Shown here: positions 3,716 through 29,301 of the stretch, piece after piece
Layout of the letters: every line of letters starts with the position of its first letter
Numbering within the stretch: position 1 is the first letter of the stretch
IMG/VR virus record: IMGVR_UViG_3300025889_000071
DNA length: 64,000 nt
From: a virus
Taxonomy: Duplodnaviria; Caudoviricetes
Direction: 5' to 3' (one strand)
Made by a program: the position numbers and the translations under genes
Notes under the pieces: generated by a model
Database searches by the model: none
Seen by the model: the letters and a program-made list of their open reading frames with translations, nothing else
Told to the model about the DNA's origin: nothing

Positions 3716-4041
3716 CAGAATACAACGTATCTTTAACAAGTTCAGAATATAGCATTTCTTTAGATACCCAGTCTTCTTTAACAGTATCTAGTGTTAGTAT
3801 AGGAGCAACAGCTGTGCCTGCAAAATTTTCAGATCTTTCAGATTTTAATGGAGATTCAGTATCTGATAAGTACGTAATTATGTACAATTCGTCAACACAA
3901 ACTTATGAGGCAGTCAATCCTGATGAAATATTTACAGCTGCTGTAAATGAAACCTCATCTCCAGGAATATCTACTGTATTTTTAAATCAATTGGGAAGTG
4001 ATTTAGATAATCAAATAGATGTTGATGCTGGGACTTTCTGA
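3712..4041 (+). CDS. Hypothetical virion-associated protein
   Basis: ATGA overlap with the upstream gene; ends IDVDAGTF, a typical phage fibre-associated DxGxF motif. Confidence 0.6.
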   Translation: MTEYNVSLTSSEYSISLDTQSSLTVSSVSIGATAVPAKFSDLSDFNGDSVSDKYVIMYNSSTQTYEAVNPDEIFTAAVNETSSPGISTVFLNQLGSDLDNQIDVDAGTF

Positions 4042-24468: not shown

Positions 24469-24776
24469 TGAAAAGTTTTAAACAATTTTTAACCGAAAGC
24501 ATCACCATCAATGGTGATTTCAATGGAACTCTCAATGTAGGAGGTTCTCAACCAGAACAGGCACAAGAGTCATTCTTTGCCGATGTTGTCTGGGAAGGTA
24601 AGTTATACCGTCTTGAAGTAGAAGGTAAAATGCTTTCCAAAAATGAATTGGCAGAGCAGATTCAAGGAGAATATCCAGGTGCAATTGTTCATCAAATTTA
24701 TCCAGGAAATTCTCCTTCTTCAAAAATCAAAAACGCACAAAGATATCAACCAGAAAGATTAAGTTGGAGTGACTAA
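24468..24776 (+). CDS. Hypothetical protein with capsid-targeting-like N-terminus MKSFKQFLTE
   Basis: TAATG coupling; N-terminus resembles the T4 internal-protein leader. Confidence 0.7.
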   Translation: MKSFKQFLTESITINGDFNGTLNVGGSQPEQAQESFFADVVWEGKLYRLEVEGKMLSKNELAEQIQGEYPGAIVHQIYPGNSPSSKIKNAQRYQPERLSWSD

Positions 24777-26338
24777 TGGCTCAGTGGAATAAAACTACAC
24801 AAGATTACCTCAATCAAGAGAGAAGTCTATTTGAGGTTTACATGTGTGCCGACAGATACGGCAACATTGATGGGTGCAATGGAACTGCGAGTGGTAGTGG
24901 TGCATTTGGAGAACAAATTGTATCTCAAATCACCCCAGTCCTTCAACTTGATGGTCTGTATGGTTTAAACTCAGATAGATTTGAACTCTACTCATTTGGT
25001 ACTGGTAGCACTAGTGATGCTAATAATTTGATGACTACATCAACAGGAACTGGTGCTTATGGTTATGGAGTTGTTCGTTCTAAAAGATCTGTAAGATATC
25101 GTCCAGGACAAGGTGCTCTCGCAAGATTCACAGCACAGTTTTCTGGTATTGCAACAGGATATACACAAAGAGCAGGATTCTTCACACAAGAGCAAGCACT
25201 TCAAGTTGGATACAGCACTGAAGGAAGGTTTGGTATTCTTCGTGAGAATGGTGGTAAAGCTCACATTCATAGATTTACTATCACAACACCTTCAAGTGGC
25301 ACAGAGAATATAACAGTCACTCTTGCTGGTGTCGCATCCACAGTTACTATTGGATCAGGAACAACAACACAAAACGCAACTGGTATTGGAACTCATACTT
25401 ATGCTGGTTGGATTGCCGACTATAAGAATGGTTATATTGATTTCTTATCCACAAGCGTCGGTCCAAAAACAGGCACATTCTCTATTGTAAGTAATGGTGA
25501 CCTGGTAGCTACATCAACAACTTCTCAAACAGGTGTAAATCATACAAGCAACTGGACATATCAAGAGGACTGGAACTTTGATACGATGACTGGTGTTGGT
25601 GGCACCACCAATCCATCAGGAGTTACATTAGATCCAACCAAACTGAATGTATACCAAATCAACTTCCGTTGGTTGGGTGCTGGTGAGATGAGATTTGCTA
25701 TTGAAAATCCCACAACGGGAGATATGATGCCCGTTCATCATATTCACTATACAAACAGGAATAATACTGTTCATTTAGATAATCCATCACTCAAGATTGG
25801 ATATGTGGCTGCCAATCTGGATGGTAATACTGGTGCTGGTGTAACAGTCTCTGGCGCATCTATGATGGGTGCGATTGAAGGTGTTATTAATACCACAACC
25901 CTTCCAATCGGTGCCTTTAGAACAAAGACTGGTGGAATGAATAGTACTGGCACAAAATTCCACCTGATTACCATTAAGGGCGGTATGATTGTCAATAACA
26001 AAATTAATACCAGAGAACTTATAGTAAAGAAAATTAGTGCTCTAACAACATCGGCAGGAACAGCACCTTGTTTTATCTATCTGTATATTGATCCAATAAC
26101 AGCAGATCCTTTAGATTTCACACCTCTTGGAAATGCTTCTTCATATTCAACAACTGATACAACAATCACTGGTGGAGATCCAGCAGCAGTTTTTTGTGTT
26201 ACATCGGGTGCTCCAGAAACAATTGATCTTGATGAGTTGAGAATTGTTTTACCACCACAAAGACTATTCACGCTAGCAATTTCTTCCAGTGCTGTTCTAC
26301 AAAATGCAGATGCTGCAATAACATTTGTTGAGGATTAA
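24776..26338 (+). CDS. Hypothetical beta-rich (Thr/Gly-rich) virion protein
   Basis: 520-aa ORF, TAATG coupled, composition typical of structural/fibre proteins. Confidence 0.7.
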   Translation: MAQWNKTTQDYLNQERSLFEVYMCADRYGNIDGCNGTASGSGAFGEQIVSQITPVLQLDGLYGLNSDRFELYSFGTGSTSDANNLMTTSTGTGAYGYGVVRSKRSVRYRPGQGALARFTAQFSGIATGYTQRAGFFTQEQALQVGYSTEGRFGILRENGGKAHIHRFTITTPSSGTENITVTLAGVASTVTIGSGTTTQNATGIGTHTYAGWIADYKNGYIDFLSTSVGPKTGTFSIVSNGDLVATSTTSQTGVNHTSNWTYQEDWNFDTMTGVGGTTNPSGVTLDPTKLNVYQINFRWLGAGEMRFAIENPTTGDMMPVHHIHYTNRNNTVHLDNPSLKIGYVAANLDGNTGAGVTVSGASMMGAIEGVINTTTLPIGAFRTKTGGMNSTGTKFHLITIKGGMIVNNKINTRELIVKKISALTTSAGTAPCFIYLYIDPITADPLDFTPLGNASSYSTTDTTITGGDPAAVFCVTSGAPETIDLDELRIVLPPQRLFTLAISSSAVLQNADAAITFVED

Positions 26339-26351
26339 AAGGAGTTTTGTT

Positions 26352-27230
26352 ATGAGTGACGTATATCTTGGCAATCCATTATTAAAAAAAGCAAATACTG
26401 CGATTGAATTTACTCAAGAACAGATTGAGGAGTTTATTAAATGTCAGAGTGACCCAGTATATTTTGCAAAAAATTATGTGAAGATTGTGACTCTTGATAA
26501 AGGATTACAACCTTTTGAGTTATACCCATTTCAAGAAAAGTTAGTTAATAACTTTCATAATAATAGATTTAATATCTGCAAGATGCCACGGCAGACAGGT
26601 AAATCAACAACTGTGGTTTCTTTTCTTTTACACTATGCAGTATTTAATGATAATGTCAATATAGGCATTCTAGCAAACAAAGCTGCAACCGCAAGAGAAC
26701 TTCTTGATAGGTTACAAACTGCATACGAGAACTTACCAAAGTGGATGCAGCAAGGTATCATAGCATGGAATAAAGGTAGTTTGGAGTTAGAAAATGGCAG
26801 TAAGATATTGGCAGCTTCTACATCTGCAAGTGCTGTCCGAGGCATGTCGTTCAATATCCTCTTTCTCGACGAATTCGCCTTCGTCCCTAATCACATCGCT
26901 GACTCCTTCTTTGCATCTGTTTATCCTACTATTACTTCTGGTAAAAGCACAAAAGTCATCATAGTTTCAACGCCACATGGTATGAATCATTTCTACCGTA
27001 TGTGGCACGATGCGGAAAAAGGTAAGAACGAATATATTCCCACAGATGTTCATTGGTCAGAAGTTCCAGGTAGAGATTCTAAATGGAAAGAACAGACTAT
27101 TGCAAACACATCAGAGCAGCAGTTTAAAGTTGAGTTTGAATGTTTGGATGGAAATACATCGATTGAAATTTTAGATGAGAATAATACCATTCAAAAAATT
27201 TCAATGGAAAACTTATATAAACGGTTGTGA
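26352..27230 (+). CDS. gp17: Terminase large subunit gp17 N-terminal part (ATPase) fused to split-intein N fragment
   Basis: Walker A MPRQTGKST, Walker B LFLDEFAF, motif III IVSTPHG; ends QQFKVEFE-CLDGNTSIEIL...LYKRL-stop. Confidence 0.95.
   Translation: MSDVYLGNPLLKKANTAIEFTQEQIEEFIKCQSDPVYFAKNYVKIVTLDKGLQPFELYPFQEKLVNNFHNNRFNICKMPRQTGKSTTVVSFLLHYAVFNDNVNIGILANKAATARELLDRLQTAYENLPKWMQQGIIAWNKGSLELENGSKILAASTSASAVRGMSFNILFLDEFAFVPNHIADSFFASVYPTITSGKSTKVIIVSTPHGMNHFYRMWHDAEKGKNEYIPTDVHWSEVPGRDSKWKEQTIANTSEQQFKVEFECLDGNTSIEILDENNTIQKISMENLYKRL
27141..27227 (+). mobile_element. Split intein N fragment (29 aa, CLDGNT...LYKRL)
   Basis: Intein block A (C1-L-x-G-x-T) begins exactly where gp17 similarity stops. 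Confidence 0.92.
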
Positions 27231-27241
27231 GTTTTTTGGAT

Positions 27242-27249
27242 TATAAATA
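27242..27249 (+). promoter_or_regulatory. Late promoter TATAAATA
   Basis: Exact consensus 9 nt before the endonuclease start. Confidence 0.75.
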
Positions 27250-27258
27250 ATTAAAAAA

Positions 27259-27828
27259 ATGTATTATATTTACTTTCTTAAAGACTTGGATGGAAAAGTC
27301 AAATATGTTGGACAGACTCAAAATTTAGATTCTAGAAGAAGAGAACATAAAAGAAATAAACCACCACATAAATTTGAAATAAGTGAGCAGATAGATATTT
27401 CAGAAAAAGCAAAAGAAGCAGAAATTTTTCATATAGAAAAATTTGATACTTTTAAAAATGGATGGAATAAATCTACTGGTGGAGAAGGATTTGATGACTA
27501 CGAAAGAAAAGGAATTGGTGGAGCAAAAAAGGGAACTATTCCTTGGAATAAAGGAGTCAAAAATTGTTTCTCTGAAGAGACTATAGAAAAAATGAGCAAT
27601 TCTAGAAAAGGTAGAGTTTTTAGTAGAAAAATAAATGACGATCAAATAAGAGAGATAAGGAAACTATATAATGAAAAACCAGAATTACAAAATGTCGGTG
27701 CAATTATGAAAAATGGTAAAAGATTATCATATATTCAGGCATTTTGTAAGGAATATGCAAAAGATTATAATTTAACTCCACAAGGGATAAAAAGAATTAT
27801 TTTAAAGGAATGCTGGACAAATGTTTAA
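27259..27828 (+). mobile_element. Free-standing GIY-YIG homing endonuclease with NUMOD3-like DNA-binding motif
   Basis: YYIYFL...YVGQT...R..EH...E...I...F..GWN (GIY-YIG); PWNKG...SEETIEKMSNSRKG (NUMOD3-like). Confidence 0.88.
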
Positions 27829-28129
27829 ACTTAATAAAAATATTAAAGTAAAAACTCCTAGTGGATTTAAATATTTTTCTGGAATTCAAAAAGTTTACAA
27901 ACCATTTTATCATTGGATAATATTTGATGATGGAACAGAAATAAAATGCTCTGACAATCATTCTTTTGGGAAAGAACAAATAAAAGCATCAATGATTAAA
28001 GTTGATGATTTTTTTCAGGGGAAAAAAGTAGTTTATAATGAAATAGTAGAAGAAGAAATATACCTTTATGACTTACTTGATGTTGGTGAAGATAATCTTT
28101 ATTTTTCAAATGGAATAATATCTCACAAT
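27821..28129 (+). mobile_element. Split intein C fragment (103 aa, ends SHN; Cys+1 at 28130)
   Basis: Blocks B, F and G present; terminal His-Asn followed by Cys. Confidence 0.92.
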
Positions 28130-28984
28130 TGTGAGTTTCTAGGGTCTGTTGATACACTTATTGCTCCTAGCAAATTGAGAAGTTTAATTTATGATCATCC
28201 TAAAGTAAGAAATAAAGGTCTTGATGTTTATGAAGACCCCAAAAATGACCACGACTATTTGATGACAGTTGATGTTGCTAGAGGAGTGAGTGAGGATTAC
28301 TCTGCATTCGTAGTTACTGACATAACAGAATTTCCACATAAAGTAGTTGCAAAGTATAGAAATAATGAAATCAAACCAATGCTATTTCCGAATATCATAT
28401 ATGAAGTAGCAAAAAATTATAATGGAGCCTATATTCTTTGTGAGGTAAATGATATTGGAGATCAGGTTGCAAGTATTCTTCAATATGATTTAGAGTATCA
28501 AAATCTTCTCATGTGCTCAATGAGAGGAAGAGCTGGTCAAATTGTTGGTCAAGGATTTTCTGGAAAGAAAACTCAACTGGGAGTTAAGATGTCCAAGACC
28601 GTAAAGAAGGTTGGGTCATTAAACCTCAAGACAATGATTGAGGAGGATAAATTAATCTTCAATGACTATGAAATTATTTCGGAACTTACAACTTTTATCT
28701 CAAAACATAACTCATTTGAGGCTGAAGAAGGGTGTAATGATGACCTTGCAATGTGTCTTGTTATCTATGCATGGTTGGTAGCACAAGACTACTTTAAGGA
28801 ACTTACTGATCAAGATGTTCGTAAGAGATTATATGAGGAGCAGAGAAATCAAATTGAACAAGACATGGCACCATTTGGGTTTATATCTGATGGTCTAGAT
28901 TCAAATTCATTTGTGGATGCTGAAGGTGATCGATGGTACACTGATGAATATGGTGATCGTTCATATATGTGGGATTACCTTTAA
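27821..28984 (+). CDS. gp17: Split-intein C fragment fused to gp17 C-terminal nuclease domain
   Basis: IKCSDNH (block B), LYDLLDV...YFSNGIISHN followed by CEFLGSVDTLI; nuclease DVARG, EVND, DDLAM. Confidence 0.95.
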   Translation: MFKLNKNIKVKTPSGFKYFSGIQKVYKPFYHWIIFDDGTEIKCSDNHSFGKEQIKASMIKVDDFFQGKKVVYNEIVEEEIYLYDLLDVGEDNLYFSNGIISHNCEFLGSVDTLIAPSKLRSLIYDHPKVRNKGLDVYEDPKNDHDYLMTVDVARGVSEDYSAFVVTDITEFPHKVVAKYRNNEIKPMLFPNIIYEVAKNYNGAYILCEVNDIGDQVASILQYDLEYQNLLMCSMRGRAGQIVGQGFSGKKTQLGVKMSKTVKKVGSLNLKTMIEEDKLIFNDYEIISELTTFISKHNSFEAEEGCNDDLAMCLVIYAWLVAQDYFKELTDQDVRKRLYEEQRNQIEQDMAPFGFISDGLDSNSFVDAEGDRWYTDEYGDRSYMWDYL

Positions 28985-29220
28985 TGGATTTAGATGGTCA
29001 AATAAAACTTGGTCATTTACTTTTAAATGATAGGAGATGTAGAATATGTGGAGAAACTAAAAATTTAATAGAGTCATTTTATAGAACCAGAAAAGATAGA
29101 GGAGCTGTAGCATCGTCATATTCATATGAATGTAAAGACTGCACAAAGCAAAGAATAAAGAAACAGAGAAAAAAAATTAACTCAATATCTAAAATTAAAG
29201 ACGTATATCCCGATTGGTAG
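28984..29220 (+). CDS. Small CxxC...CxxC zinc-finger-like hypothetical protein
   Basis: CRIC...CKDC; TAATG overlap with the gp17C stop. Confidence 0.65.
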   Translation: MDLDGQIKLGHLLLNDRRCRICGETKNLIESFYRTRKDRGAVASSYSYECKDCTKQRIKKQRKKINSISKIKDVYPDW

Positions 29221-29260
29221 CGTTCACGTCGAACTTCCCCAGTGTAAATTTGCTTTTTAA

Positions 29261-29266
29261 TAAATA
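29261..29266 (+). promoter_or_regulatory. Late promoter TAAATA
   Basis: Upstream of gp18. Confidence 0.7.
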
Positions 29267-29301
29267 TTTTTTAGATAAACTGAAAAAATACGGAGAGAAA
29301 A

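Follow-up and report, generated by a model that had tools for sequence, protein, structure and literature searches.

The closest described relatives of the element examined here are split inteins of phage terminase large subunits (TerL): AceL-TerL, reportedly from Thiel et al. (2014), GOS-TerL, said to be from Bachmann & Mootz (2015), and the engineered intein Cat. Cat is a designed consensus of GOS-TerL and AceL-TerL with an N-terminal intein fragment (IntN) of 30 aa and a C-terminal fragment (IntC) of 104 aa; the IntN of AceL has 25 aa and that of GOS 37 aa, the AceL IntC has 104 aa, and all three inteins trans-splice experimentally (PMC11766414). The fragments of this family dock hydrophobically, whereas canonical split inteins pair electrostatically (PMC11766414). 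Fractured genes were described by Dassa, London, Stoddard, Schueler-Furman & Pietrokovski in 2009, among them the Lake Gatun ‘Terminase’ locus, a gp17-like gene with a long C part and the only case in that study to be broken at an ‘unusual point’ (PMC2677866). Here we analyse a locus of this kind in a 64,000-nt stretch of viral DNA (Duplodnaviria; Caudoviricetes; IMG/VR record IMGVR_UViG_3300025889_000071), the full length of which is referred to below as the window. Positions 26352–28984 of the window are filled by a gp17/terL gene in two open reading frames (ORFs) with a third ORF between them. A preliminary description, made from the sequence alone, had presented the locus as a terminase gene fractured by an atypically split intein with an intervening endonuclease, a class already known from metagenomes; the fractured terminase of Dassa et al. 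bears out the latter point (PMC2677866).

The three ORFs are all on the same (plus) strand, as are the other features of the terL locus given below, and their arrangement is far beyond chance. ORF 1 (26352–27230; 292 aa, 33.4 kDa) starts with the ATG at 26352, where the alignment with homologous terL genes also begins, and direct reading of the sequence places a Shine-Dalgarno sequence, AAGGAG, at 26339–26344, 7 nt ahead of this ATG. It encodes the N-extein (26352–27140; 789 nt, 263 aa), which is the TerL ATPase domain (Pfam Terminase_6N, E 1.3e-23) and ends QQFKVEFE, followed by IntN (27141–27230), consisting of 29 codons from Cys1 with block A only and then TGA. An A/T-rich spacer of 28 nt (27231–27258) leads to the gene for a free-standing GIY-YIG homing endonuclease (27259–27828; 189 aa, pI 9.5). 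ORF 3 (27821–28984; 387 aa, 44.8 kDa) starts MFKLNKNIKV and has the motif CSDNH; it comprises IntC (27821–28129; 103 aa, blocks B, F and G, ending ISHN) and the C-extein (28130–28984; 852 nt plus stop, 284 aa, starting CEFLGS). The C-extein is the TerL nuclease/translocation domain (Pfam Terminase_6C, E 3.4e-16) and matches the nuclease-domain structures of RB49 and T4 gp17 (3C6A, 3EZK). On re-reading, the sequences and coordinates quoted in the preliminary description and its sum of 263 + 284 = 547 aa were all correct, and the computed mass of the joined exteins, 62.7 kDa, agrees with the spliced product of ∼63 kDa that it had predicted.

The limits of the insert are most clearly seen by comparison with an intein-less terL, that of L013, which is one of the 80 best IMG/VR loci retrieved using the C-half and is of viral metagenome origin. 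When 27141–28129 was deleted in silico, the remaining 1644 nt aligned with L013 without gaps and with 97.1% identity (98.4% for the N-extein), the C-extein running on from the N-extein in the uninterrupted gene. Therefore, the insert is exactly 989 bp. The exteins differ from L013 at 47 nucleotides, only 3 of which are nonsynonymous. Against cultured phages, megablast returned uninterrupted Synechococcus-phage terL genes, the best being S-SCSM1 at 82%, and the alignments with cultured cyanophage terL stop at window position 27143 and restart at 28130. The joined exteins are 36% identical to T4 gp17 over 534 aa, with the N-extein aligned to gp17 residues 87–353 and the break falling between T353 and A354. 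From the gp17 structures, we take the ATPase domain to be residues 1–360 and the nuclease domain to start at 361; as T353/A354 adjoins these limits, the break is placed at the border between the two domains. We noted separately that 17 of the 47 differences from L013 are packed into ∼80 nt of the C-extein (window 28670–28750; joined-gene positions 1329–1407), a cluster suggestive of a small recombined patch that has no connection with the insertion site.

Both pieces of the intein match the chains of the solved Cat structure. IntC aligns with CatC (PDB 6DSL chain B, ‘Consensus engineered intein CatC’) with an E-value of 8.5e-54 and ∼84% identity, differing at 16 of 103 positions, and IntN aligns with CatN (PDB 6DSL chain A) with an E-value of 3.4e-7, 19 of the 28 aligned residues being identical (∼68%). 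The alignment to Cat proposed in the preliminary description thus holds for both fragments and, together with the Pfam domains of the two halves and the ungapped L013 alignment, upholds its reading of a fractured gp17 with an atypically split intein. The residues required for splicing are all present: Cys1, block B S44-D-N-H47, block F D84/D87, block G S101-H102-N103 and the +1 Cys. The catalytic residues of IntC and the +1 Cys were invariant in an alignment of 117/117 cluster representatives drawn from a collection of 5.8 billion proteins, and IntN begins with Cys in all eight IntN alleles that were read. The exteins, IntN, IntC and the endonuclease all have dN/dS values of 0.05–0.25.

Judged by its sequence, the insert belongs to the AceL-TerL/GOS-TerL/Cat family of atypically split class-1 inteins. 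As in that family, the host is a T4-type TerL and the split comes directly after block A, leaving an IntN of 29 aa and placing blocks B, F and G in an IntC of 103 aa. The Cys1/Cys+1 pair is shared with AceL and Cat, whereas position 1 of GOS-TerL is Ser, and the window allele is a natural marine cyanophage sequence whereas Cat is an engineered consensus. IntN and IntC both have a net charge of about −2 at pH 7, i.e. the charges are not opposite, which fits the hydrophobic docking reported for the family. The locus also resembles the fractured genes of Dassa et al. in having the halves of an essential gene on the same strand, each with a split-intein piece, and a free-standing endonuclease gene between them (GIY-YIG here; GIY-YIG or Vsr-like there) (PMC2677866). 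The IntC of their terminase locus, however, has 122 aa and came from a freshwater sample, compared with 103 aa and a marine source here (PMC2677866).

With this set of residues, the two TerL halves are very probably joined by functional trans-splicing. The short IntN would dock into the near-complete IntC and so complete the HINT fold; formation of the Cys1 thioester, attack by the +1 Cys and cyclization of Asn103 would then release a scarless 547-aa TerL with the junction KVEFE-CEFLGS. DNA packaging would depend on this reaction. A different possibility is that the halves act as a non-covalent terminase without any new peptide bond, the intein pieces serving as a dimerization clamp or being dispensable. 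Two separately folded domains, such as those on either side of a break at a domain border, could in principle associate, and in Aeh1 nrdA, which is fractured by an endonuclease without an intein, the two parts form a functional ribonucleotide reductase (PMC2677866). However, the window locus has kept Cys1, the SxxH motif, the Asp residues of block F, the terminal His-Asn pair and the +1 Cys, and a mere clamp would not need the splicing residues that are invariant across the 117 clusters; moreover, close relatives of the intein splice efficiently in experiments (PMC11766414). We therefore regard a purely non-covalent terminase as improbable. It is also doubtful, to a similar degree, that the phage makes use of the split, which falls precisely at the domain border and has a conserved late-promoter element ahead of the second half. 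In such a scheme, trans-splicing would be a checkpoint on timing or quality, joining the packaging nuclease to its motor only late in infection, and its two cysteines could make it responsive to redox state or temperature.

The allele and its family are widespread. IntC was matched by at least 346 protein clusters (clustering at 90% identity), at least 120 of which are ≥84% identical across the full IntC. An identical C-half is present on at least 24 metagenome contigs, the longest of 215 kb, each with the same three-gene architecture. Among IMG/VR loci, IntC-bearing terL occurs in 12 of the best 80 and the three-gene architecture in seven, and the same three genes (292, 189 and 387 aa) were called in independent JGI and ENA assemblies. 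The suggestion in the preliminary description that natural alleles are rare is contradicted by these numbers. The carrier is a lineage of T4-like marine cyanomyoviruses with repeated occurrences in many aquatic metagenomes; in the GenBank collection, no cultured phage was found with a close copy of the intein, only distant relatives.

This recurrence bears on the reading that the gene is simply broken and non-functional, either in a defective or dying lineage or through chimeric assembly of variants with and without the intein. Three independent assemblies (L087, L088 and L089) do end inside the terL N-half, ∼390–440 nt upstream of the endonuclease; these breaks may reflect strain heterogeneity (intein-plus versus intein-minus, or mosaic alleles) that confuses assemblers. 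Nevertheless, many samples independently yielded assemblies with exactly this arrangement, on contigs reaching 215 kb, none of the three ORFs is disrupted, nonsynonymous changes are as scarce relative to L013 as described above, and dN/dS is well below 1 in all parts, so that a broken gene is highly improbable. The chance that the insert is removed as RNA, as a group I intron with a GIY-YIG gene like T4 td/I-TevI, is close to negligible, and this identity was rejected: phage group I introns often house GIY-YIG endonucleases (PMC2677866; also general knowledge), but a permissive Rfam search of 26000–29300 gave no match at E ≤ 1, intron families included, the insert is bordered by intein motifs in frame with the exteins, and both pieces match solved split-intein chains.

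The endonuclease announced in the preliminary description is confirmed by an N-terminal GIY-YIG domain in the ORF at 27259–27828 (E 7.3e-8; 33.1 bits against a Pfam cut-off of 22.6). An orthologue of 189 aa occupies the same position in L001, L003, L004, L006, L009, L010 and L011, with dN/dS values of 0.08–0.23. Its stop codon lies within an 8-nt overlap with the IntC start (ATGTTTAA, 27821–27828), compared with overlaps of 6–69 bp in Dassa et al. (PMC2677866); the overlap is kept in seven other alleles and suggests translational coupling. Within the endonuclease 3′ end, 11 nt ahead of the IntC ATG, there is a Shine-Dalgarno-like AAGGA (27805–27809), which reads AAGGAG (in most), AAAGAG or AACGAG in other alleles. 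In contrast to ORF 1 and IntC, the endonuclease ATG has no Shine-Dalgarno sequence ahead of it, and the gene is presumably weakly translated.

The spacer between IntN and the endonuclease contains TATAAATA at 27242–27249, which is the T4-type late-promoter consensus; the same element stands ahead of ten endonuclease genes in Dassa et al. (PMC2677866). Within the spacer, GGATTATAAATA is invariant in 8/8 alleles, while the other parts vary in length and sequence. Across the window, TATAAATA is not enriched (4 observed versus 5.1 expected), so its significance comes from the invariance among alleles, which points to a candidate promoter. The C-half would be produced from read-through transcripts, from late transcripts initiated within the cassette at TATAAATA, or from both, and would be translated efficiently, possibly by coupling and probably from its own ribosome binding site (RBS) in the endonuclease 3′ end.

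Several features show signs that the 989-bp insert, at the ATPase/nuclease border of a T4-like cyanomyovirus terL, is a cassette that is, or recently was, mobile. Its GC content is 0.24–0.28 overall (IntN 0.27, IntC 0.24), compared with 0.35–0.37 for the exteins (N-extein 0.37) and 0.365 for the window, and this low value therefore marks it as foreign DNA. Between the window and L004, the cassette has 88–92% nucleotide identity (dS 0.3–0.5), whereas the flanking exteins have 75–77% (dS about 2). As the cassette is much less diverged than the gene that hosts it, the two have separate histories, as would be expected from endonuclease-driven spread of the cassette to new terL alleles. The cassette is best explained as a mini-intein broken just after its first motif by a free-standing GIY-YIG endonuclease gene. 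In mixed infections, the endonuclease would cut intein-less terL and repair would copy in the whole cassette, with the intein rendering the insertion harmless to the phage.

Related alleles appear to show further stages of this process. In L008 (3116–5185), which is without an endonuclease, only GGGCAA separates the IntN stop at 3994 from the IntC ATG at 4001. The sister allele L009, which has an endonuclease, carries the same six bases immediately ahead of its IntC start, and an apparently clean deletion of the endonuclease can thus be recognized. In the model of Dassa et al., this loss would correspond to the stage of decay, and gp41-7 is their endonuclease-less variant (PMC2677866). A different departure is seen in L003 (35–1909) and L004 (1530–3404), where the N-half ORF is 624 aa long rather than 292. 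The ∼330 extra residues contain homing-endonuclease domains of the LAGLIDADG type (Pfam LAGLIDADG_3, E 4.3e-11), suggesting that the ATPase domain holds another, contiguous intein, in which case splicing would have to occur twice in the products of these terL genes. Three observations are new here, although the homing model predicts each of them: the much lower divergence of the cassette compared with its host gene, the allele without an endonuclease, and the alleles apparently with two inteins.

Four points weigh against this account of the locus. When 13 intein-plus alleles were compared with 67 intein-minus alleles, no fixed nucleotide difference was found within 60 nt of the site, so that the alleles do not point to a homing target site. 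The NUMOD3 match of the endonuclease, at 19.4 bits, is slightly below the Pfam cut-off of 20.4; NUMOD-type motifs in a DNA-binding region behind the GIY-YIG domain are characteristic of I-TevI/Seg-like homing endonucleases. A hairpin sequestering the RBS, as found in 15/16 of the endonuclease leaders in Dassa et al. (PMC2677866), is not supported ahead of the endonuclease here, the best hairpin being all A-U with −3.9 kcal/mol. Finally, a second, intact terL may be present elsewhere in the roughly 215-kb genome. Within the window, tblastn found no second copy of IntN, IntC or the endonuclease.

Two candidate features were set aside in the course of the analysis. Four synonymous differences from L013 lie within 25 nt on the 5′ side of the insertion and were considered as a homing-site signature; as no position is fixed, nothing was drawn from them. 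A regulatory hairpin hiding the endonuclease start, as in Aeh1 mobE and in Dassa et al. (PMC2677866), found no support: the best leader hairpin has a z-score of +0.73 relative to shuffled sequences, and five alleles fold no better than shuffles, with no conservation.

Among cultured phages, two Vibrio phages carry related inteins in TerL. In VP-1 (MH363700), an atypically split intein occupies the homologous TerL site (FDQEYD/C and SHN/CSFLGS, the slash marking the junction), with an IntC 33% identical to that of the window. It differs in that its IntN and a GIY-YIG endonuclease form a single in-frame fusion, and in that the P-loop holds an additional mini-intein. VP-1 belongs to the Ackermannviridae, and its locus (L082; MH363700.1, 74807–78149) is annotated as ‘terminase large subunit’ and ‘terminase like family protein’, the IntC ORF starting upstream of the second annotated coding sequence. 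In vB_VmeM-32 (L083; KU160494.1, 1102–3216), a related mini-intein, 36% identical over IntC, lies within a TerL of 704 aa. There, however, the intein forms one contiguous piece, and its insertion point is the Walker B site (VDE/C...SHN/CAF) and not the domain border.

The terL locus is flanked on both sides by ORFs without a Pfam match. Directly upstream, 24776–26338 encodes 520 aa; relatives in L008, L009 and L011 keep the N-terminus MAQWNK next to terL, with lengths of 276–520 aa. Downstream, between terL and the tail sheath gene, a small ORF at 28969–29220 encodes 83 aa from a GTG (78 aa in the calls for sister contigs), with CxxC...CxxC motifs and a basic tail. It is apparently absent from L004, whose alignment skips 28968–29242.

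The window intein is an ordinary member of a known, common and well-described family and opens no new question; the outcome and rate of splicing by this allele are unlikely to bring a surprise. For protein engineering, it supplies a further natural Cys1/Cys+1 allele with a 29-aa IntN, a small practical gain given that an optimized consensus (Cat) from the same family already exists. For the Cat/AceL/GOS intein family, it provides a genomic home, a T4-like cyanomyovirus lineage, and it adds natural-history detail to the homing model in the form of a 97%-identical intein-less allele, a cassette far less diverged than the gene around it, and endonuclease-less and double-intein alleles.

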